A stretch of 64,000 nucleotides of DNA, taken from the IMG/VR virus record IMGVR_UViG_2778261574_000002; one strand, given 5' to 3'. This stretch comes from a virus. Taxonomy: Duplodnaviria; Heunggongvirae; Uroviricota; Caudoviricetes. The notes below the pieces were generated by a model that worked only from the letters and a program-made list of their open reading frames with translations, did no database searches and was not told the origin of the DNA. The translations under genes were made by a program, and so were the position numbers. Of this stretch, positions 5,187 to 42,450 are shown piece after piece. The first letter of the stretch is position 1. Each line of letters opens with the position of its first letter.

Positions 5187-8174
5187 ATGAGCTTAAGCGA
5201 TCAGGTGGTTATGGCCACCAGCATAGAAACGCTGATCGAGCTGCTAAAGAACCTGCCCGATTATGGGCGGGTTTCGTATGTGGTGACAGCGAAGGGAGAC
5301 GAGGTAAAAACAGCGTTTGATATCGTCGATGCCTCGGCTCTTTTGGTATCCAATACTCTGGACGGGAAAATTAATCCGGACTATCCCCAGGAACTTCAGC
5401 CGCGCGACCGGACCCGCGCATCCAGCCTTCTTCAGGTTAACCAGATATCCAAAGATTTGCGACCTGCTCAGCTTACCGATTCCGGTTTATCCAGCCATGG
5501 CGCGCCGATAATTGGTGAGGACAATGCCGTTGAGTCGGGTAATGGACGGACCATGGGGATCATTAAAGCCTATCAGGACGGCAATGCGGATCGGTATCGG
5601 GAGTATCTGATTGAACATGCGACCGAATTCGGCATACGACCTGAAAAGGTTGAATCAATGACGGCCCCGGTACTGGTGCGCCGCCGGTTAACTAAGGTTG
5701 ACCGCGTTCAGTTTGCCAAGGACTCAAATATTTCTGATCTTCAGGAAATGGCAGCCAGTGAAAAGGCTTTTGTTGATGCCGACAACATAACTTCGGCGAT
5801 GATGGCGCTGTTTAACCCGTCAGAAAGCGGAGATCTGCTTAGCCGCAGTAATGACGCGTTTATCCGCGGATTCATGACGCAAGTTGGTGCCACACAGGCT
5901 GCTGGCCTTGTAACGGAAGATGGGCGACCAACACGGCAACTTGTAGACCGTATACAAAACGCGATCTTTGCCAAGGCATATAAGGATGCGCGCCTGGTAA
6001 GGATGGTTGCAGAAGAACCTGATCCAGATATGCGTAATGTTCTGACGGCGCTTAATGCGGCAGCCAATGATTTTGTCCAGATGCAGGCTTTATCAGGTGA
6101 AGCGCACAAGCAGGCTGTGACAACTATTGTTGATGGTATTGAGACAGCGGATAGTCTCGATAAAAAGGCGCTGGCGGCATTGAAAGATGCGGTAGACCTG
6201 GTAAGGCAATCGAAGGAGTCAGGCCAACATATTACCGATGTTATTGCTCAGGGGGATATGTTCAGCGAAACGGCCCCGGAAGTGAAAGCACTCGCGTTGT
6301 TTATCGTCGCGAATAACCGTAGCGCGAAGCGTATGGCCACCGCCTTTAAGTTGATGGCGCAACGTATCAATGATGAGTTACAGCACCAGGGCCAGGCGCT
6401 CGGGGATATGTTTGGCGGCGGCGATGTGTCGTTACAGGATATCCTTCGCCAGGTGTCTCAGGAACTGGAAAACGAAGGTATGCAAGGGATATCCAGCGGT
6501 CTTTTCGAGTCAGCTTCCGGCGGTAGTTACAACGGTGTTGCTCCATATACCAGTTTGCTATTACATCGGGCATCCGGCATCAAAGACATTATTCATCTGA
6601 TCAGGCTGCTTTCCCGTACAGATCCCCAGGATGAACAGCTTGTACAAGTGCTTGCGCATTTTGTTCGAATGCCTGTTGCCGACGTGAAAAAATGGTGCCG
6701 ATTATTCGGTATCAGCAATTCGTTACTTCGCGGCTTGTTAAATCACGCATCCTCCCTTGGGCGCGATGGCTTTGACGAGATAGCGCAGGCGATAAAAAAC
6801 GGAGATATGCCACCAGCTATTGACTGGTTTTCCATTCGCCCAACCAGGGTGAAAGCATTCCTTAGCGCGGCGCATTCGGCATCACCATTGGCAGAAATGG
6901 TTCAGAGGTTGTCGCTCATATTCACAGATCATACCGCGTTGGGTGATCTGACTCTTGACGAGATGAAAGAAGCCTCCATTCAGTGGGCCGATCAACAAAA
7001 TGAGGTTAACTCTGACTTCTTGCCAGCATTCAGGAAGGCCGTTAGTAAAGCGGATGATGCCCGTGGAATTCTGAAGGCATTTAAGGCATTGCAAAGTCGG
7101 GTTAATAAACATGTCGGTGGTATCGATGGAGTAACGGCGGAAGGCAGGGATATCCTTAAAGAGCACGGCATAACGCCAGAGTTTATTGATGAGATCAGGA
7201 CGGATATGCAGCGTGAGGTCGTATCGTCCCTGCAAATTGTAGCCAGGGCGTTGGCGGATGCTAATCCGAAGAGTGCGGCCATTGTTAACCGGGTTATTGG
7301 TGATATTGAAGCATCGGAGGGCATGGGGGCGCTGAAACTCTTCCTTTCGCGAGCGTTTAATCCTAACGGCAATATTCTCCCTGGCATTATTGGTGAGGCT
7401 AAAAAGTATGTCAGTGAAGAAGAACTTGAGCAGCTTGACCAACTACTTAAGCGATTCTCATATAACCCGCAGACACGCTGGCAAATGAATCAGCGAAGTA
7501 TGGGGTCGGTCCACGAGAAAGTGTTATCTGCCATGAACAGTGCGATCGCAAACTCATCCGTATCTGAAGAAAAAGCTCTTGAGTGGGCCGACTCTTTTAT
7601 CACGGAAGAAGTGGAAGAAGCCCGCGCTGGACAGAATGGTGGGATAGACCTGCGCAAGGAACTTGCTGATATTTATCGCCTGACCGGCGGGAAAATATCG
7701 ACCTTATCAAAGGTGATTCACCACCAGGGAAGGGCATATGCAAATCTAAATGGTGTTGTTGCTGTCAATTTGAACGATGAAAATGCAAGTGCACTGTGGC
7801 ACGAGCTGGGTCATCATCTTGAGTACAGTAACCCTGGTTTGTTAGAGAAAGCCCGGTCATTCCTGAAGGCCAATGTTGAAGGGGATAAGCCATCATTCGT
7901 CAATATCGGTGGGCGTGGCAAGCCTGAATGGTGCTTCAGATCTCGATTGAGTAATATTTATATGGCGAAGGTATACCCGCCAGTCTCAGTGAGTAACTCA
8001 GGGAAAATTCGGCAGAAATCACCGACTATTTCCAAAACGTCAGCAACGGAAGTATTCTCTATGGCTCTTCAGTTGTATCATGACAAAGAGGCCGCTGCCG
8101 CATCACTGATGAATGGTGACGGATTGCTGGAACTGTTATTAGGTGTGGCAAAGGAACTAAATAATGCAGATTAA
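5187..8174 (+). CDS. ddrB: DdrB, large head-associated Dar component
   Basis: 995 aa, follows ddrA; size and position match P1 DdrB. Confidence 0.7.
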   Translation: MSLSDQVVMATSIETLIELLKNLPDYGRVSYVVTAKGDEVKTAFDIVDASALLVSNTLDGKINPDYPQELQPRDRTRASSLLQVNQISKDLRPAQLTDSGLSSHGAPIIGEDNAVESGNGRTMGIIKAYQDGNADRYREYLIEHATEFGIRPEKVESMTAPVLVRRRLTKVDRVQFAKDSNISDLQEMAASEKAFVDADNITSAMMALFNPSESGDLLSRSNDAFIRGFMTQVGATQAAGLVTEDGRPTRQLVDRIQNAIFAKAYKDARLVRMVAEEPDPDMRNVLTALNAAANDFVQMQALSGEAHKQAVTTIVDGIETADSLDKKALAALKDAVDLVRQSKESGQHITDVIAQGDMFSETAPEVKALALFIVANNRSAKRMATAFKLMAQRINDELQHQGQALGDMFGGGDVSLQDILRQVSQELENEGMQGISSGLFESASGGSYNGVAPYTSLLLHRASGIKDIIHLIRLLSRTDPQDEQLVQVLAHFVRMPVADVKKWCRLFGISNSLLRGLLNHASSLGRDGFDEIAQAIKNGDMPPAIDWFSIRPTRVKAFLSAAHSASPLAEMVQRLSLIFTDHTALGDLTLDEMKEASIQWADQQNEVNSDFLPAFRKAVSKADDARGILKAFKALQSRVNKHVGGIDGVTAEGRDILKEHGITPEFIDEIRTDMQREVVSSLQIVARALADANPKSAAIVNRVIGDIEASEGMGALKLFLSRAFNPNGNILPGIIGEAKKYVSEEELEQLDQLLKRFSYNPQTRWQMNQRSMGSVHEKVLSAMNSAIANSSVSEEKALEWADSFITEEVEEARAGQNGGIDLRKELADIYRLTGGKISTLSKVIHHQGRAYANLNGVVAVNLNDENASALWHELGHHLEYSNPGLLEKARSFLKANVEGDKPSFVNIGGRGKPEWCFRSRLSNIYMAKVYPPVSVSNSGKIRQKSPTISKTSATEVFSMALQLYHDKEAAAASLMNGDGLLELLLGVAKELNNAD

Positions 8175-34971: not shown

Positions 34972-35605
34972 GGTCCACCTCATGCTTTTCAGCCACCAGC
35001 GGCAATAAAGCCCTGGCCATCTTATGAACCAATAGTGCATCAATAATGCCAAGCGTATGCCCCGGCTTAATGTTTAATGCCGCCTCAAGGCGACACCTTT
35101 CCAGGCCACTTTTCTCGGCTTGTTTATGATGATCTGGTGTAATAACGTCGCCCAAAACACGGCTTATTCTTTCTCGTAATTGCTGGGTGCCAGCACACTT
35201 GATCGCTGTATCGTGGAGACGGTTAACCAGTTCGCGATAAACATGCGGCTTAATTCGGATACGTTCACCGGTGACGCCCTTTCCTGGTGCTGGCACCGAA
35301 CTATCCGGAATATCCGGATAGTTGCCAGCCTCGTAAGCTACCCGCAGCCAGTGCATGAATGTTTCAGTGGACACACAACCACAGTCCACATCGATTTTCC
35401 CGCGTTGCTGTTCCAGCCAATGCTCAAAATTCAATCTACACGTATTACTTTCATGTTGCTCTTTTTGTCTCAAGGCCAGCATCTGCTGGGCTATTTCCAA
35501 TACTTCATCTGCCGTATATCCAGCACCGTGACCATACATTTCGATACGGGAAATAATCTCTGATATGCGCTCTTCAGTGATTCTGGTCATTTCTTTTTGC
35601 GCCAT
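34955..35605 (-). CDS. hypothetical protein
   Basis: 216-aa ORF in operon with flanking genes. Confidence 0.5.
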   Translation of the reverse strand: MAQKEMTRITEERISEIISRIEMYGHGAGYTADEVLEIAQQMLALRQKEQHESNTCRLNFEHWLEQQRGKIDVDCGCVSTETFMHWLRVAYEAGNYPDIPDSSVPAPGKGVTGERIRIKPHVYRELVNRLHDTAIKCAGTQQLRERISRVLGDVITPDHHKQAEKSGLERCRLEAALNIKPGHTLGIIDALLVHKMARALLPLVAEKHEVDHANES

Positions 35606-35961
35606 TTCTTTTCACATTCCTTAGTCCATTTTTCAATGTTCATTTTGGCAATATCAGTCATTCCATCACCTAAGAAATACTTTTTCCGGTACGTCTTGCA
35701 CTTAAACCACACTACAACAGCCACCAACCAGAAAATAAAAGGCCATACAGCAATACCAACTCCAGCCGCGATAAAGCCCAATAGCCATAAATGAAGCTCT
35801 CCAACTTCTGTTTGCGGCAATATTCTTAAAGAATTAAACAGCAGACTGAAGGAATGGTCGTATGCATTGGCGGTATAAGACATGCAATCCATATAATTAA
35901 AGTCATAGCCTGCGGCTGCCGCCCATAATGGGCGGTCAAGAAAATGTTTTAGTGTCATCAT
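35587..35961 (-). CDS. small membrane protein in AT-rich cassette
   Basis: two predicted TM helices (LWLLGFIAAGVGIAVWPFIFWLVAVVVWF) and Lys-rich tail. Confidence 0.5.
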   Translation of the reverse strand: MMTLKHFLDRPLWAAAAGYDFNYMDCMSYTANAYDHSFSLLFNSLRILPQTEVGELHLWLLGFIAAGVGIAVWPFIFWLVAVVVWFKCKTYRKKYFLGDGMTDIAKMNIEKWTKECEKKWRKKK

Positions 35962-35967
35962 ATAAAT

Positions 35968-36357
35968 TTAAGGTTCAGACCAGTTATCTTCAATAGCAAT
36001 GCTTAATCTTTGTAGCCATTCTGCTAATTTCAGCATTGCTTCTCTTTCGCTTAAACCACGAGGAAAATCATCAAGCGAAATTGTTGGCTTGAAGCCCCCG
36101 TAATTATCCATTTCAACAGTCAGATTTTGCTCCAGCACGGTATTCCTTACGCGGCTATTGTGCCGAAGCAAATATACTGAACGTGATTTATTGGTTTTAT
36201 GGTCAAACTGATATTCGGTAAGTATCATCTGGCTTTTGCCATGACTATTACCTCTCCACATACCTACCTCACTTAATAAAACAACTCCATGCGTAGTTGA
36301 TGATTTTTTCCTACGTAATATAAATCTGCACTCCGGCAGTAAAACCAAAGCCAACAA
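35968..36357 (-). CDS. hypothetical protein in AT-rich cassette
   Basis: ORF directly upstream of the membrane protein; start uncertain. Confidence 0.4.
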   Translation of the reverse strand: MLALVLLPECRFILRRKKSSTTHGVVLLSEVGMWRGNSHGKSQMILTEYQFDHKTNKSRSVYLLRHNSRVRNTVLEQNLTVEMDNYGGFKPTISLDDFPRGLSEREAMLKLAEWLQRLSIAIEDNWSEP

Positions 36358-36439
36358 TTGCTGAAAAAATCAAAACATTTACTTTTGACATTATAAATTT
36401 TCTCTCGGTGTCGTAGGTGATAGCACCATAATTGATAAT

Positions 36440-36691
36440 TTAGTGAGTTAGCAGTTCCATTTTTTGGATGATTTCCGCATGAGCATCATCGTTATCAACA
36501 CTTAACTCGTTTAATGCCTCTCGCACCACATCAACTTCTTCTGGTTGGAAGAAATCATCTCGGTAGTCACCAAATAGAACCGAAACAAGCCTGCCACCAG
36601 CAACATCAAGATTGGCGCTAACAGGTGGCTCTTTGCCATCCTCAAATTCGACTACAAAAGTTATTTTTCCCATCGTTACCACCAGCGACAA
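36440..36691 (-). CDS. small acidic hypothetical protein
   Basis: 83-aa ORF. Confidence 0.45.
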   Translation of the reverse strand: MSLVVTMGKITFVVEFEDGKEPPVSANLDVAGGRLVSVLFGDYRDDFFQPEEVDVVREALNELSVDNDDAHAEIIQKMELLTH

Positions 36692-36758
36692 ATTGAATAC
36701 AAACCCAGTGCTGCCGCCATCACAATTCCTACCGTTGCGAATGCTTCAGGCCAGCTCG

Positions 36759-37019
36759 TTATCTCACCTCCAGTCTCCATACCGCCTGACCAATCCGGCT
36801 GGCATGGGTATCTTTGGATACTGTTCCGTCTTTAGCCATCTCCATAAGAATTTTGCGCAAATCTGCCGAACGCCATTCTTCATCAGGAAATTCCTTCTCC
36901 ATTGCCAACCGCAGATTCCAGGTTGCCATCCTGAATGGATATTCCCCGCCGAGAGCTTTATCTTGCAGGGCAGCCCGGGAACGCATCACCTGCAAAACCT
37001 TCTCTTTTACATTCATCAT
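36759..37019 (-). CDS. hypothetical protein
   Basis: start moved to the internal ATG pair that overlaps upstream stop. Confidence 0.4.
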   Translation of the reverse strand: MMNVKEKVLQVMRSRAALQDKALGGEYPFRMATWNLRLAMEKEFPDEEWRSADLRKILMEMAKDGTVSKDTHASRIGQAVWRLEVR

Positions 37020-38131
37020 TTCGCCTCCTGCGGCGGTTCTGGTAGCGGCATCCAGTGTGACGGTTTCCACGACGCACCAGGAATTATCCAACCATCATTA
37101 GCGTCAGGATACCCCGGTATGTAAGTCGCCCATTTCATTCGCCAGTCACCTTTCCTATCAAACTCCCTGGCAACAAGAACGGCTGTTTTGCTATCCGGCA
37201 TTCGCTCACTACAGCTTATCCAACCATCCGGAGTTACCGGAACTTGCGGAATGGCTGTCTGCTCTCGAACGTCATTAGGCGCTATAGGTTCTGCTGCCAA
37301 CTGACTGGCATATTTGTTAATGGTAACGATAAGCTCTTGCTCGGCCTCATCCAGACAATCACCGATACCTCGCCTGTCACCGTCAAAATCATCGAAATCG
37401 GCACGAATCTTGGCAACCTCCTGGATTGCGGACAACACTTCACCAGGAATAAGCCGAGAGTTGCCCGATAGTGCATTCTGCTCCAGTGATGCTTTTACAA
37501 ACCACGCTGCCTGAACTATAACGCCATGAATCCAGCGCAAATCAGCATCGCGATCTTTCTTTTTCATCTTTTCGCCACTTAAGGCCTTGCTTATGTGGCT
37601 GCGTACCAGGTCTTCATGTAATTCCTTCGCCTCCTCAATGGTGAAACCACCAGGCAGAAGAGCCGGAGTTACCGGAGAGCTGGTTGACGCTTCCGGGATT
37701 TCCCGAAAATTATTGGTTGACGAATTCTTGCTTTCCCGAAAGTTTCCGGACTGAAGCATGGCGGTGCGGCAGGCGTTCCATATTTCGGCAGCAATATCGC
37801 GCTCGCTATCGGTTAATTTGTACGTGGAAACATAGCCAGAGAGCATTTCTACGTTTTCCGGAGTTGCTTCTTCCGGCACTACCGGCGCTGGCGGGGCGAT
37901 GCGTCCAAGCAACTTATTTACCTCTTTCGCCATCGCGTCATATTTATCTAAATGGCGATTAGCTTCTAAGCAGACTCGGCGCATCTGATCTGAGTTAACT
38001 CGTTTAACTGGATCTGCTTCCAGCGATGCCAGCGCAATCCGTGCCAGTTCCATTTGTTCACCACGGGTAAGCCCGTTTTCAAGCGGATTTTTAATGAACA
38101 ATTCAATACGTTCTTTGGTAATAGTGGTCAT
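37016..38131 (-). CDS. hypothetical protein with DUF551-like C-terminus
   Basis: C-terminal W..SERMPDSKTAVLV..SHWMPLPEPP pattern; N-terminal domain paralogous to 38844-39239 (shared PVVPEE..WNACR.AMLQ). Confidence 0.5.
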   Translation of the reverse strand: MTTITKERIELFIKNPLENGLTRGEQMELARIALASLEADPVKRVNSDQMRRVCLEANRHLDKYDAMAKEVNKLLGRIAPPAPVVPEEATPENVEMLSGYVSTYKLTDSERDIAAEIWNACRTAMLQSGNFRESKNSSTNNFREIPEASTSSPVTPALLPGGFTIEEAKELHEDLVRSHISKALSGEKMKKKDRDADLRWIHGVIVQAAWFVKASLEQNALSGNSRLIPGEVLSAIQEVAKIRADFDDFDGDRRGIGDCLDEAEQELIVTINKYASQLAAEPIAPNDVREQTAIPQVPVTPDGWISCSERMPDSKTAVLVAREFDRKGDWRMKWATYIPGYPDANDGWIIPGASWKPSHWMPLPEPPQEAK

Positions 38132-38141
38132 GTGTTACTCC

Positions 38142-38405
38142 TTAACCCGCAGTGCTTTCAACTGATGAGGGGAACAAAATCTTTTCATCAAACCCTGCAT
38201 TCATATCATGAACAGCAACACACCAATCCATCGACGAACGATTATCAAGAGCCTCCATGATTTCATCCATGCGGCGTAGGTCATACAGGTAAATGCTTTT
38301 ATCGCCAATGGTGTAAAAGCCAATTTTTTTCGGTGATGGACAGCGATCAAGAACTTCCTGTAATTCGTTCAACCATGCCCGTTCTTTTTTTGTCAAAGTT
38401 GCCAT
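38142..38405 (-). CDS. hypothetical protein
   Basis: start set at MATLTKKERAW, adjacent to upstream stop. Confidence 0.4.
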   Translation of the reverse strand: MATLTKKERAWLNELQEVLDRCPSPKKIGFYTIGDKSIYLYDLRRMDEIMEALDNRSSMDWCVAVHDMNAGFDEKILFPSSVESTAG

Positions 38406-38406
38406 A

Positions 38407-38625
38407 TCAGTTTTCCTTATACGGATTAATTTTATTGTGCAGTGTGTTGAACGACGCCCATACCACGTCGTTATACAATTCAATAACTGGTTCAATTATT
38501 TTCCCGATTGCCCAGACAAAAATTAGCGGGGATATCGGTATCATCAACACGATAAACAGAATGAGAAACAAAAGTTCTGTCGCTCTACTTTTTCGCGGAT
38601 ATTCTTTTCTGAATAATGTAGGCAC
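38407..38625 (-). CDS. small membrane protein
   Basis: 72 aa with hydrophobic core LLFLILFIVLMIPISPLIFVWAIG. Confidence 0.35.
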   Translation of the reverse strand: MPTLFRKEYPRKSRATELLFLILFIVLMIPISPLIFVWAIGKIIEPVIELYNDVVWASFNTLHNKINPYKEN

Positions 38626-38626
38626 A

Positions 38627-38842
38627 TCACTCTCCTTTGTTGCTTCTCAAAATTTTATGCCCTGGCGCAAAAGCACGCGTTTTGTCGACGCTTATTCGCC
38701 ACCCATCTTTACGTGCCTCTTTTGCACAGCCAGCCCATGACGTACCGATATACTCACCGAAGTCTGGCACTGGATATACACCTTCCGTACACTGGCGGCA
38801 GTCACAATAGAGATGCATGGTGTAACTTGCGGCAATAGCCAT
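38627..38842 (-). CDS. hypothetical Cys-rich small protein
   Basis: start MAIAASYTMHLYCDCRQC adjacent to upstream stop; ends with KGE junction motif. Confidence 0.4.
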   Translation of the reverse strand: MAIAASYTMHLYCDCRQCTEGVYPVPDFGEYIGTSWAGCAKEARKDGWRISVDKTRAFAPGHKILRSNKGE

Positions 38843-38843
38843 A

Positions 38844-39239
38844 TCACTCTCCTTTACCCTGAAGCATGGCGGCGCGGCAGGCATTCCAGCCTCTCACCTC
38901 TGCAATAGCGGCAACAGCATCGACCGCGTACATTTTAAGAGGGTTAGGCATTGGTTTTTCTTCAGGTACTACTGGCACTGGAGGGGCGGCATAAACAGGA
39001 ATAACGTCCGCTTGCTCTTTATTACTTTCATCCGTTAAAGCCCAGAATAATTTCCCGGCCGGATGTTTGAAAATATAAGCAACTGGTTCTGCGCTATCAG
39101 CTTCGCGCCGCTTCTGTAGCTCTGCTGCCATTGCTCTCACGACTTCAACTGGTGCCCTTGCAGCAAACTCTATGTTGGTGATCAGCTCATTAAGATATTG
39201 CTCGCTGGGATACTGTTTCTTATTGGTAATAGTGATCAT
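38844..39239 (-). CDS. hypothetical protein, paralog of the N-domain of 37016-38131
   Basis: ATGA overlap with upstream gene; shares PVPVVPEE and WNACRAAMLQ with the larger neighbour. Confidence 0.45.
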   Translation of the reverse strand: MITITNKKQYPSEQYLNELITNIEFAARAPVEVVRAMAAELQKRREADSAEPVAYIFKHPAGKLFWALTDESNKEQADVIPVYAAPPVPVVPEEKPMPNPLKMYAVDAVAAIAEVRGWNACRAAMLQGKGE

Positions 39240-39751
39240 GCCGCGTTTCCTTCTTTCTTATTAACAATTACACCGTCATATATTTCATTAAGGTGCCCTC
39301 TCAACTCCATGCGCCTTAATGCAGATAACATGTAATCGCATTCAACCTGCTTATTCCCGGTAAATGGCTTATCGTCAGGATTACCCCAACAGCAATTACC
39401 CGTGGGCCATCCATGTACTTTCCGTACTCTTCCGTTAACAACGTGAAGTAATCCCCAGCCGGGAGGTAAATCCTCAATTGAAATAATTCCCGGCTCACTA
39501 ATAAAGAATCGCCAGTCGCCCATGCCAAGTGAGGGATTTTTACGGAAACGCTTTTTTCTATCTGCCAACAAGTCAGCACGAGAACACTTCGCCTCTATCA
39601 GGCATGATGCTGAATTTCTGAATCCCATAGCATCTGGCTGTTCTCCGGTACTGGTTACAGCAACAAAGCGGTCATGAAAGCAAACCTTGAACCCGTTGCG
39701 CTTAAGGAACTTGTACGCAATCTGACAGAGTTCGTGGTGTGTTAACGCCAT
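39236..39751 (-). CDS. putative PD-(D/E)xK-fold nuclease
   Basis: QPDAMGF ... CLIEAKCSRADLL resembles the PD..ExK catalytic core; ATG preceded by AAAGGAG. Confidence 0.45.
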   Translation of the reverse strand: MALTHHELCQIAYKFLKRNGFKVCFHDRFVAVTSTGEQPDAMGFRNSASCLIEAKCSRADLLADRKKRFRKNPSLGMGDWRFFISEPGIISIEDLPPGWGLLHVVNGRVRKVHGWPTGNCCWGNPDDKPFTGNKQVECDYMLSALRRMELRGHLNEIYDGVIVNKKEGNAA

Positions 39752-39752
39752 A

Positions 39753-40313
39753 TCACTCTCCTTTGATGCGAATGCCAGCGGCGCGGGAATCATTCCATCG
39801 CTTTACTTCTTCACGAATTACGTCAATGCATTCTTTCGAATCCATTAGGTAATCTTCATCAAAAAGACGTTCCTGTTCGTTTTCTATCGCAACAATGATT
39901 GCTTCAACTAACTTTTGTTCCTGAGAATCACTTTCTAACTCTGCTATGCGCTTACTCCCATCCGAGATAACACCTTCGTAATATTCACGCTGTTCGTTGA
40001 GTTTTGATTTTGTCTCCTCAAGCTCAACGCGCAGCTTCCCTACCGTTAGCGCAATATCCTCGTTCTCCTGGTCGCGGCGTTTTATGTATTGCTGGTTTCT
40101 TTCCCGTTCATCCAGAAGCGCCAAGACGGTAGCCGGATTGGCTGCGGCGATGAATTCAGCATCACGAGATTCGTTTTCACTGAACACCATAGCTATTTGC
40201 TCATGGTTTATGCCGTCAGTGGAGTAAATCTCATCGTCGAATTCAACAGCCCACTTACCTTTCGTAGCCTTCTCTGCCGCCTCACGCAGTGCCTGATAGT
40301 CAATCTTGCTCAC
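39753..40313 (-). CDS. Ea22/Ead-like early protein (paralog 1)
   Basis: likely GTG start behind AAGGAGG, overlapping upstream stop as GTGA; N-terminus SKIDYQALREAAEKATKGKW. Confidence 0.5.
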   Translation of the reverse strand: MSKIDYQALREAAEKATKGKWAVEFDDEIYSTDGINHEQIAMVFSENESRDAEFIAAANPATVLALLDERERNQQYIKRRDQENEDIALTVGKLRVELEETKSKLNEQREYYEGVISDGSKRIAELESDSQEQKLVEAIIVAIENEQERLFDEDYLMDSKECIDVIREEVKRWNDSRAAGIRIKGE

Positions 40314-41011
40314 TGGTTGCCTCCTTTGCGAATCTGTTCCGCCCATTCTTCAAGGGATTTCTCCGCATATTCACCGGACAGGCCATCAATCGGGTACGGT
40401 TCATTAGCCAACTCTTCTTTCGCTGACAGAATCATGCGCGTAACGTCGAAAACTTCACGCAAAGACTTATTGATAAATCCGTGATTGAACGCAGCAGCAA
40501 GACGGCTGGCGGTATAGTTAATCCCCTCGTTGCGTGCTTCCGCACGAATTTCAGCCAGAAAAGCATCGGTAGCTGGAGTTTCGCTGTGGTGTAGGGCATC
40601 GTTGATAATCATTGCAGCAACTCCGGCCTGCCCTGCATCCGTGACCGACACATGATCAAGAGTTACAGCCATTGCGTGTTTCAGCCCAGCGTTCTCTGCC
40701 ACCAGAGCCGCGAGCTTAGTCTCAAGCGGTGCTATTCGGCACATAGCATCAATATTTGTGTCCTCCAGGCGCTTAATTTCACCAAGTAGCTCCAGTGCAA
40801 CCTTTGGGTTGAATGCGGCAATATAACGAGCGTTGTTCTCTGCGTTTTTCAGTCCATCAAAGCCGGTCCATTTGATAACGTCTTCACATCGTTTATCACC
40901 GGGCGTATGCACCGCATACGTACCAGTACCCGGCGAAATAAATGCGACCCATTCGCCCTGTGTTGCCTGTTTTGCTATCTCACGCAGTGCCCGGTAATTA
41001 ATTTCGCTCAC
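40310..41011 (-). CDS. Ea22/Ead-like early protein (paralog 2)
   Basis: same junction and N-terminus SEINYRALREIAKQATQGEW; GTG start overlapping upstream stop. Confidence 0.5.
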   Translation of the reverse strand: MSEINYRALREIAKQATQGEWVAFISPGTGTYAVHTPGDKRCEDVIKWTGFDGLKNAENNARYIAAFNPKVALELLGEIKRLEDTNIDAMCRIAPLETKLAALVAENAGLKHAMAVTLDHVSVTDAGQAGVAAMIINDALHHSETPATDAFLAEIRAEARNEGINYTASRLAAAFNHGFINKSLREVFDVTRMILSAKEELANEPYPIDGLSGEYAEKSLEEWAEQIRKGGNQ

Positions 41012-41247
41012 TGGCTGCCTCCTTTGCGGAGTTGCGCTTCGATGCACGAAAAAAAAGACTCCCGAGTATGACTGTTAAGAGCTGGTGCGAACGCCGCGTT
41101 AAGAACGGCAGCATCACAGCCGTCATCAATATAGAGCGCAATTTTTTTCTCCAGGCGCGCTTTGGCTTGCTGCAACTGCATACCCCGGCACGCACGCGGG
41201 ATATAATCAGCAATTTGAGCGATAGCTTTTTCGTTCTGTTTAAACAT
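41008..41247 (-). CDS. hypothetical small protein
   Basis: 79-aa ORF ending in the shared RKGGSQ junction. Confidence 0.35.
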   Translation of the reverse strand: MFKQNEKAIAQIADYIPRACRGMQLQQAKARLEKKIALYIDDGCDAAVLNAAFAPALNSHTRESFFSCIEAQLRKGGSQ

Positions 41248-41443
41248 GCTTCACCTCGATAGGCTTGATGGTGTCTAACAGCAGTCGACGGCGCGTATTT
41301 TCTGCAAAGTGGCGGCGTCCGGTATCTTTGTGGTAAAACTCATTTTTGCCGACGACCCACATCCGCTCTGTTTGGTGCAGTTTTTTTACCTGCGGCCCGT
41401 CTTTGGTGATCACGGTGCCGGTATGGGTTTTTACGATTGTCAT
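41240..41443 (-). CDS. hypothetical small protein
   Basis: 67-aa ORF. Confidence 0.35.
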   Translation of the reverse strand: MTIVKTHTGTVITKDGPQVKKLHQTERMWVVGKNEFYHKDTGRRHFAENTRRRLLLDTIKPIEVKHV

Positions 41444-41526
41444 GCCACTACCTCTTCGAACAGATGAACGAGACAGGCCGATGTTCGTCCACCTGAAAAA
41501 CTGACGATTTGATGCATACTCACGGT

Positions 41527-42255
41527 TTATTCCTGAATGCGCTTAAACTCGATTACCCACACCCAGGGATTAGCGTTCCAGCTTTCTTCACCATAGATGG
41601 ATTCCCACAGGCGCTGGAACGCAACCTTGGCCATTGCGAAATCCCCCTTGGGAGTAAGGAATGTTCCCGGGTGATCAGGAAGCAAACTTCCAGCAGGCGG
41701 AACGCCCTCAGCCCTTGCATCGCATTCGCTGATATCGTTCAACCGTTCAACGCGCACGTTGGTAATTTCCAACAGAATGCGTGATGCCCATCGCGGCATG
41801 TGAATTGATGGACGCCACCCACCATCAAACTTTTCATTCACAGTGTGAGGTTTCCAGTCGGCATCATCGGGTATCGACCATAAGCCGTAATCACCAGGTT
41901 TTTGCTCGCAACTGGCCCGATAAATCCTTGCTGCGTTCTTCTCATCGCCACGACAAAGGTTGTCGTTCCAGTCCACACTGCAACCATCCTCATTGCCTAA
42001 TATCGCCCATGTTTCACGAACCCAAATTCGATCGCCGACGATACCAAATGGGCAATTGAAAACACTGCTTACACCATCAGCCCCGTACCACTGAAAACCT
42101 GCACCAATTTTTCTAACCATCACTGGTGCTTCTGGACCAACTTCCGCAGGCTGATTTTTCATTATCCGCCGCGTCTGCGTTTTCCTTCCTTCGAGGATGG
42201 CCCGGACCATCTCATCGTTAAAAATCATGCCGCGCTCTTTCACTTCGCCTTTCAT
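41527..42255 (-). CDS. conserved phage protein of unknown function
   Basis: N-terminal MIFNDEMVRAILEGRKTQTRR motif common in phage accessory proteins; no confident family call. Confidence 0.45.
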   Translation of the reverse strand: MKGEVKERGMIFNDEMVRAILEGRKTQTRRIMKNQPAEVGPEAPVMVRKIGAGFQWYGADGVSSVFNCPFGIVGDRIWVRETWAILGNEDGCSVDWNDNLCRGDEKNAARIYRASCEQKPGDYGLWSIPDDADWKPHTVNEKFDGGWRPSIHMPRWASRILLEITNVRVERLNDISECDARAEGVPPAGSLLPDHPGTFLTPKGDFAMAKVAFQRLWESIYGEESWNANPWVWVIEFKRIQE

Positions 42256-42433
42256 GCATCCCCCTTACCCATGTGCGACGATGCCGCCAAAAGTGATAGA
42301 GAACAGCCAGAAATAGATCGCGGCCATAATGATTTTGAATGCCGTGTTCATATTTTCAGCTCCTGTGATTGATTGGATACATGCCGCGCCTTGCGGCATG
42401 TTTTTATTTTCACTTTCTCTGTTTTAAAAATCA

Positions 42434-42450
42434 AGATTTATTAGAGCAAT
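42434..42450 (-). promoter_or_regulatory. C1 operator
   Basis: AGATTTATTAGAGCAAT, 1 mismatch. Confidence 0.6.

Follow-up and report, generated by a model that had tools for sequence, protein, structure and literature searches.

Do the short sequences that recur at the junctions between unrelated phage genes serve only to start translation, or are they also the places where these genes are exchanged? The question is raised by six consecutive minus-strand genes at positions 38627-41247 of the virus record IMGVR_UViG_2778261574_000002 (Caudoviricetes), whose whole stretch of 64,000 nucleotides (nt) is hereafter called the window. We estimate at roughly 80% the probability that these genes belong to an operon-like lambdoid array whose conserved joints couple translation and serve as tracts for homologous recombination. 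Judged from the alignments, the joints are inherited sequences common to unrelated genes, and exchanges, insertions and deletions end in them. A preliminary description of the locus had recognized one repeated junction; there are three types, which we call joints A, B and C.

Three types of joint in one gene array

The six genes are the following (aa, amino acids):

41008-41247, minus strand: 79-aa gene, phrog_1344, ending QLRKGGSQ, a tail encoded by joint B
40310-41011, minus strand: Ead/Ea22-like gene, 233 aa, GTG start, ending QIRKGGNQ, a tail encoded by joint B
39753-40313, minus strand: Ead/Ea22-like gene, 186 aa, GTG start, internally mosaic, ending AAGIRIKGE, a tail encoded by joint A
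39236-39751, minus strand: D0, 171 aa, phrog_9263, equal to Upf89.0 of P7, ending EGNAA
38844-39239, minus strand: 131-aa gene, from MITITN to WNACRAAMLQGKGE, internally mosaic, ending GKGE
38627-38842, minus strand: D2, 71 aa, phrog_926, ending NKGE, with A joints flanking both sides

All six had been described as ending in Lys-Gly-Glu or Lys-Gly-Gly codons that form the Shine-Dalgarno (SD) sequence of the next gene. This is true of five, where the codons spell AAAGGAG(A/G), but not of D0, which ends in EGNAA and carries the weaker GAAGGAA. The two genes with KGG (79 aa and 233 aa) have two further codons after it. At each joint of the run, 6 nt separate the end of the SD core from the next start. 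Stop and start codons, reported to overlap throughout, do so at three joints (GTGA at 41011 and 40313, ATGA at 39239), but at the other three a 1-nt spacer leaves them adjacent without overlap (TGA-T-ATG or TGA-T-GTG). The same architecture extends beyond 38627-41247 on both sides: GTGA, ATGA or TGA-N-ATG geometry is found at eight consecutive junctions, from that between the 79-aa and 233-aa genes to that between D1 and a 371-aa gene (see below). Canonical SD spacing and the geometry of stops and starts suggest that translation is coupled across the joints.

The copies of the three joints in the window are listed below:

39747-39782, minus strand: joint A copy 1 in its long form, GCCGCTGGCATTCGCATC followed by AAAGGAGAGTGATATGGC; SD AAGGAG 6 nt before ATG; TGA stop, 1 nt, then ATG; 18-nt core at 39747-39764
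38838-38855, minus strand: joint A copy 2, AAAGGAGAGTGATATGGC, an exact 18-mer repeat of copy 1, 909 nt apart
38621-38638, minus strand: joint A copy 3, AAAGGAGAGTGATGTGCC, GTG start, 16/18 identical
38401-38418, minus strand: A-like joint, AAGGAAAACTGATATGGC, 14/18 identical to joint A (78%)
41006-41028, minus strand: joint B copy 1, CGCAAAGGAGGCAGCCAGTGAGC; SD AAGGAGG 6 nt before GTG; GTGA stop/start overlap
40308-40336, minus strand: joint B copy 2, with the core CGCAAAGGAGGCAACCAGTGAGC (40308-40330); contains the crossover interval 40310-40336
39223-39250, minus strand: joint C copy 1, GGAAACGCGG followed by CATGATCACTATTACCAA; ATGA overlap; repeat unit at 39223-39240
38115-38132, minus strand: joint C copy 2, CATGACCACTATTACCAA, head MTTITK; SD TAAGGAG overlapping the upstream stop

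Joint A has the consensus AAAGGAGAGTGAT(A/G)TG and occurs in three copies (39749, 38840 and 38623), compared with 0.06 expected from shuffled sequences. The two copies of joint B, with the consensus CGCAAAGGAGGCA(A/G)CCAGTGAGC, lie 698 nt apart and are identical at 22 of 23 nt, where shuffles give none; they correspond to the repeat of about 25 bp at a distance of roughly 700 bp that had already been noticed. Joint C, with the consensus CATGA(C/T)CACTATTACCAA, is found twice; the gene that follows it takes its head, M(T/I)TIT, from the joint. Both this type and the exact repeat of joint A, with its 16/18 copy, had escaped the preliminary description.

The resemblance between junctions reaches well past the SD. 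The core of joint A, 18-20 nt long, recurs between unrelated genes, often in the 33-36-nt form composed of GCCGCTGGCATTCGCATC and AAAGGAGAGTGATATGGC, and the form of joint B of about 27-30 nt, CAGCTTCGCAAAGGAGGCAACCAGTGAGC, likewise recurs between unrelated flanking genes. Upstream of the core, joint A falls into sub-classes with different tails, such as GCCGCTGGCATTCGCATC (encoding AGIRIKGE), CGCCGCAGCCGGT (AAAGKGE) and CTTGCGCACT (LRTKGE). We found neither inverted repeats at the joints nor promoter-like or terminator-like sites on the coding strand at any joint. The literal joint sequence, when searched in open-access papers, matched only an unrelated lentiviral cloning paper.

The two Ead/Ea22-like genes had been proposed to be tandem paralogs. 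Both are indeed members of PF13935 (the 233-aa gene with E = 3.2e-26 over residues 2-155, the 186-aa gene with E = 1.3e-39 in an alignment that starts at residue 2), with scores of 93 and 136 bits against a gathering cut-off of 27. Their first 20 or so codons are not near-identical as described: 13 of 21 residues agree, and the joint B repeat continues into the first codons of both genes with 75% DNA identity over 81 nt. The GTG start of the 233-aa gene is found again in most of the relatives examined, and, as far as annotation is concerned, the joints establish GTG as the start of both genes.

Reassortment of genes around the joints

We collected contexts of joint A from exact 18-mer matches in viral contigs (at least 120 stretches), retained one context per unique sequence and grouped the flanks into classes of DNA-flank sequences. 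These classes replaced a clustering of proteins, in which shared Ead N-terminal domains merged most upstream genes into one family. A 2x2 set was considered complete when each of two upstream partners was seen with each of two downstream ones. Among the matches listed, joint A had 148 unique contexts with 35 upstream and 23 downstream classes, which formed 72 distinct pairs and 76 complete 2x2 sets. For joint B, 98 unique contexts in viral contigs comprised 20 upstream and 27 downstream classes, with 61 distinct pairs and 32 complete 2x2 sets; this joint precedes at least 10 genes other than Ead/Ea22, and also follows unrelated genes.

Since these two sets were collected through the joint itself, we also built a joint-blind set, composed of the best 80 of 398 viral-contig loci encoding D0 (97-99% aa identity). 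In about 72 of the 80 loci, AAAGGAGAGTGA(T/G)ATGGCG lies directly upstream of D0, after 12 or more different gene ends. The genes downstream of it in the 80 loci are of seven or more kinds, and all of them start with M(T/I)TIT. D0 is a portable cassette, with an A joint at its 5' side, a C joint at its 3' side and variable neighbors on both. D1 is found in other genomes with a full A joint in front, behind many different genes.

The gene content of the array differs in all relatives, and modules have been gained or lost exactly at the joints. We identified 13 distinct precise insertions or deletions of cassettes, in which the order upstream gene, joint A, cassette, joint A, downstream gene in one locus corresponds to upstream gene, joint A, downstream gene in another, and both flanks align base for base. 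For example, the 909-nt unit between copies 1 and 2 of joint A (D0 plus the 131-aa gene) occurs in one locus (L035) but not in another (L007), and a third (L084) has an 843-nt gene between the tail of the 186-aa Ead gene and D0, where the window has nothing. In 50,697 phage records and 5,426 E. coli genomes, no single locus covered at least 80% of the 3.3-kb region. Arrays differ not only in gene content but also in gene order, which for D0 and D2 is reversed in the plasmid pCFSAN004176P_03 (positions 6001-6548 and 7251-7473 of locus L001) compared to the window (39223-39770 and 38633-38855).

Joints of the same types are widespread among phages. The 36-nt joint A is shared by 165 phage records, among them those of P7, HK620, Stx and P22-like phages and of lambda, which has it at the end of ea22. 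The 35-nt joint B is present in 51, HK97 and P22-like phages among them. In lambda (for example OM418626.1, 29844-29874) the match spans positions 3-33 of the 36 nt with one mismatch, and the feature annotated under this type of match in related records is ea22. In species-representative genomes, the joint A 18-mer had 58 matches, mostly in unrelated taxa with few in Enterobacter or Escherichia; as we estimate that chance alone would give about 17 in 596 Gb, these matches are uninformative. Two short contigs (L206 and L215) of a metagenome-assembled genome labeled Segatella copri hold the exact 18-mer; they may be mis-binned E. coli phage DNA.

The window itself contains a crossover in a joint. 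The plasmid pCFSAN004176P_03 (L001) matches positions 40310-47601 at 99.4% identity, and pMB5646_3 (L002) matches 37665-40336 at 99.2%. The two matches overlap solely at 40310-40336, that is in 27 nt inside joint B, and in the three-way alignment the identity changes from one parent to the other within TTCGCAAAGGAGGCAACCAGTGA. In L001 the corresponding joint is followed by a DUF4752 gene, and in L002 an unrelated gene ending AAQLRKGGKQ lies in front of it. On this alignment, the window is a recombinant of an L001-like and an L002-like array. Together with the 13 precise insertions or deletions and the many 2x2 sets, the crossover bears out the earlier proposal that genes can be swapped at a conserved joint. 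Recombination at the joints is thus supported by the comparison of arrays.

How could the joints work? Each, 18-36 nt long, combines the last codons of the upstream gene, doubling as a strong SD, with the stop and an adjacent or overlapping ATG or GTG. It would couple translation, so that any gene placed behind a joint could be expressed. The short tracts of identity at the joints would then allow homologous recombination to exchange, insert, delete and re-order cassettes in register, and the same exchange would take place among lambdoid prophages and P1/P7-like plasmids. The enzyme may be the host RecA or a phage annealing protein (RecT, Red-beta or Sak4-like). Recombination also occurs at conserved intragenic segments of multi-domain genes. 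Because the joint carries terminal codons, C-terminal tails (such as GIRIKGE and QLRKGGNQ) and N-terminal heads (MTTITK, MSKIDYQALRE) would be determined by the joint, not by the protein body, and appended to unrelated proteins; the terminal residues of the Ead/Ea22 proteins should therefore not be over-interpreted in annotation. An extension of this reading, in which the joints form a general, self-propagating system of cassette exchange, is tentative and seems to us unlikely. In it, two like joints would recombine to release a gene as a small circle with one joint, able to re-enter any array with a like joint, much as proposed for the mini-circles of PeSL cassettes (see below). P1-like myovirus plasmids and lambdoid prophages, though unrelated lineages, would then share one pool of cassettes, protein termini would partly hitch-hike with the joint, and the system would offer a case tractable by experiment for testing linker-targeted against illegitimate recombination in phage mosaicism.

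Several points weigh against the main reading. The contexts of joints A and B are a biased sample, much of which was gathered by searching with the joint itself. When breakpoints were counted in the joint-blind D0 set, after excluding D0 itself and partly collapsing events related by descent, 24 of 148 distinct breakpoints were within 25 nt of a gene junction compared with 15 expected (p = 0.014), and the enrichment at junctions is therefore modest in the unbiased set. Many breakpoints are intragenic, lying in the 186-aa Ead gene (39925-40150), the 131-aa gene (38950-39075) and the 371-aa DUF551 gene (37050-38025). Shuffling is thus not confined to gene joints, but uses them and conserved intragenic segments alike. 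For pairing, Red-beta is reported to need at least 23-27 bp and RecA at least 31-34 bp (PMC3945230): the 27-36-nt forms of the joints are within this range, whereas the 18-nt core is below it. As the part of joint A that is common to all contexts, just 18-20 nt or so, is shorter than the lengths reported for efficient pairing, many exchanges would be rare or would proceed via the longer tails of the sub-classes. Moreover, recombination at joints leaves the origin of the same joints in unrelated genes unexplained, and we infer both the coupling of translation and the enzyme responsible. As for the breakpoints inside genes, they are consistent with the published domain mosaicism of Ea22 (PMC10834534), and their clustering near a Pro-rich segment shared by the 131-aa and 371-aa genes (see below) suggests intragenic linkers at domain boundaries.

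The alternative that survives best is the standard one in the literature (PMC3233612), the Hendrix model of random illegitimate recombination followed by selection at gene boundaries. The joints would then be kept as signals for the initiation and coupling of translation and would play no role in recombination. Such a model accommodates the many breakpoints away from gene joints, as well as the shortness of the core shared by all contexts of joint A. However, an SD needs about 6 nt, whereas the joints are identical or nearly so over 18-36 nt between unrelated pairs of genes, synonymous and spacer positions included. The 13 insertions or deletions and the crossover in the window keep exact register in the joint, where no base is gained or lost, and the 76 and 32 complete 2x2 sets would demand many independent illegitimate events at the same nucleotides. 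We consider this explanation quite unlikely.

Two other accounts fare considerably worse. The presence of tandem Ead/Ea22 paralogs and of an 81-nt repeat that spans both the joint and the N-terminal codons could indicate that the local duplication of one such gene, together with its upstream ribosome site, produced the repeated joints. Against this, the 233-aa gene resides in L001 and the 186-aa gene in L002, each in a separate array at 99% identity, and the two meet at the joint in the window. Since the matches to L001 and L002 overlap only in joint B, the two genes were united by recombination between arrays and not by local duplication. Tandem duplication also leaves aside that joint B follows unrelated genes and precedes non-Ead ones, and that joints A and C connect unrelated genes, which makes it a very improbable source of the joints. 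Local tandem duplication of the Ead gene is itself ruled out by the three-way alignment of the window, L001 and L002.

The precise insertion and deletion of genes between short repeated sites also recalls integron cassettes, and the joints could be the targets of a dedicated site-specific recombinase or nuclease. Such a system is highly unlikely because the joints have no inverted-repeat structure and no integrase or recombinase is annotated beside the array in the P1-like plasmids examined (L001 and L002). In addition, there are three unrelated joint sequences, whose length differs among sub-classes, and breakpoints occur inside genes. Finally, all joints contain AAGGAG, which is common in front of genes, but chance similarity of SD sequences is refuted by the shuffle controls and hard to reconcile with a 36-nt joint A in 165 phage records, so that its probability is close to nil.

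A lambdoid gene block in a P1-like plasmid prophage

The preliminary description called the genome P1-like and the genes early, and both labels hold. Positions 42300-47600 of the window (5.3 kb, from pmgO to pap) are 98% identical to P1 and 99% identical to other P1-like phages. Synteny and identity with the P1 backbone (pmgO-pmgS-pap and humD-phd-doc) are found on both sides of the array, at 97%, as expected of a Punavirus, and E. coli plasmids of about 96 kb with phd/doc and humD match both flanks at 97-99%. P1 (AF234172) aligns at 97% identity to 43243-41561 and then again to 35336-34990. From this interruption of the P1 homology, between 41561 in pmgT and 35336, the array is identified as a 6.2-kb insertion. 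The homology to the 3' end of pmgT and to pmgU is displaced to 35336-34990. The features around the six genes are the following:

42434-42450, minus strand: C1 operator Op88/OpmgT, 17 nt, an exact match to the operator annotated in the P1 record
41527-42255, minus strand: truncated PmgT, 242 aa, composed of 232 aa of P1 PmgT and 10 foreign residues (blastp, 99.1% identity over residues 1-232)
35337-41560, minus strand: lambdoid early-left-type accessory gene block, 6.2 kb, inserted in pmgT relative to P1
41440-41523, minus strand: remnant of a PAPS-reductase-like gene, 27 codons, VSMHQIVSFSGGRTSACLVHLFEEVVA followed by a stop, with the PP-loop motif SFSGGRTS read from the sequence
41240-41443, minus strand: 67-aa gene, phrog_1226, whose overlap with the next start is ATGTTTAA
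38407-38625, minus strand: DUF4014 gene, 72 aa, GTG start (PF13198, E = 1.2e-25)
38142-38405, minus strand: D1, 87 aa, phrog_1714
37016-38131, minus strand: 371-aa mosaic gene with a C-terminal DUF551 (PF04448, E = 9e-21)

Tightly packed minus-strand genes run uninterrupted from 42255 to about 36760. The PpmgT promoters are located just downstream of the C1 operator, which likely controls the operon containing the array; in the P7 record the equivalent site is annotated as Op(hea), for the 'hea operon'. No minus-strand terminator was found between 42255 and 36759. With the C1 operator intact and no terminator interrupting the array, it is fair to speak of an early, repressor-controlled operon. 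A strong terminator-like hairpin, consisting of 11 pairs and then a T run, lies on the minus strand at 42981-43009, after a 420-aa pmgS-like gene and before pap.

The genes of the array belong to the lambdoid 'ea / exo-xis' gene pool. Homologous arrays lie just downstream of the genes for single-strand-annealing recombinases in Stx2 phage PA2 and in HK620, and in PA2 the array follows recT-exo-ssb in the early-left operon. Pieces of the block match PA2 at 87-93.5% identity; within 38394-41460, segments of 190-500 nt are 91.7-93.5% identical to this lambdoid phage. D0 is 96.5-99.2% identical over 79 viral-contig loci, most of them without P1 backbone in the 3-kb flanks. P1-like phage-plasmids, which are carriers of resistance genes, thus have cassettes in common with lambdoid prophages, those of Stx phages among them, at a nucleotide identity of 92-99%. 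Recent exchange between the two groups was not seen in an earlier survey, which reported no mosaic of lambda-like with P1-P2-Mu phages at more than 90% identity (PMC3945230). According to PMC9603915, the stretch from pmgT to humD is a highly variable region (region 8) of P1-like phage-plasmids, where a cluster containing an ea22-like gene is reported in place of pmgT.

Searches of NCBIfam and Pfam at relaxed thresholds gave the unnamed cassette genes no function beyond Ead_Ea22, DUF4014 and DUF551, and the PHROGs search returned only families of 'unknown function'; several PHROG families match parts of the 131-aa gene. A Pro-rich segment, PP(V/A)PVVPEE, and a WNACR(A/T)AML motif are common to the 131-aa gene (38950-39075) and the 371-aa gene (37760-37900). 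The sequence WNACRAAMLQGKGE is the C-terminus of the former, and the corresponding motif is internal in the latter.

The 27-codon open reading frame, whose ATGA overlaps the start of the 67-aa gene, fuses the PP-loop N-terminus of a PAPS-reductase-like gene straight onto the last codons of that gene. A full PAPS-reductase-like gene of 816 nt occupies the same position in PA2 and in some P1-like plasmids, and the open reading frame looks like the remnant of an internal deletion.

Comparison with known systems

Translationally coupled gene pairs have the SD of the second gene within the final codons of the first, whose stop codon overlaps or directly adjoins the start of the second (ATGA, GTGA, TGAnATG). 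The joints of the window have this geometry, with AAGGAG or AAGGAGG 6 nt before the ATG or GTG and the stop codon no more than a few nt from it. An ordinary coupled junction belongs to a single pair of genes, whereas here one 18-36-nt junction is reused between many unrelated pairs.

Related genes and arrays have been described from other viewpoints. Ea22 proteins of lambda and Stx phages share an N-terminal and coiled-coil part and have interchangeable C-terminal domains, including DUF551 (PMC10834534); that study concerns the domain architecture of the protein, and deals neither with intergenic joints nor with P1-like elements. At the same locus as the window, the 'hea operon' of P7 contains a related array, in which Upf88.3 (Ead-like) is joined to Upf89.0, which is D0, by an identical 36-nt A joint. 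Descriptions of P7 and of the variable region list gene content, and joints are not discussed in the accessible part of PMC9603915.

The closest functional analog elsewhere is the PeSL cassettes of T4-type phages. As described by Arbiol et al. 2010 (PMC2839356), cassettes made of a sigma-70 promoter and a stem-loop terminator flank small non-essential genes, and recombination between them inserts, deletes and replaces genes in hyperplastic regions; excised mini-circles were also proposed there. Both systems combine short repeated expression signals with insertions, deletions and replacements of genes. Each PeSL-flanked gene is its own transcription unit, whereas the joints of the window carry no promoter, terminator or stem-loop; they are translational (SD, stop and start), lie in one transcript and are partly coding.

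The origin of phage mosaicism is disputed between recombination targeted to boundary sequences and random illegitimate joining followed by selection. The idea that boundary sequences target homologous recombination goes back to Susskind and Botstein 1978 and was supported by Clark et al. 2001 in HK620, as reported in PMC3233612. The lambdoid boundary sequences, as presented there, are the same kind of short conserved sequences between early-left genes, with unrelated flanks and exchange points. HK620 carries all three types of joint, with B between hkaH and hkaG, A between hkaG and hkaF and the head of C at hkaE, and joints of these types are also carried by lambda, HK97, P22-like and Stx phages. 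In the window, too, unrelated flanks share a joint, breakpoints fall inside it and the location is an accessory, early lambdoid one. What differs from the lambdoid linkers is the replicon, a P1-like plasmid prophage, and the operon, which is under a C1 operator. The array is an instance of the known boundary-sequence model in a P1-like phage-plasmid, and therefore not a new kind of element. With identical joints in dozens of unrelated pairs, insertions and deletions in register, a crossover in a 27-nt joint and parents that are 99% identical, it illustrates no new principle, but it provides an unusually clean natural example for the boundary-sequence view and a good system in which to test it.

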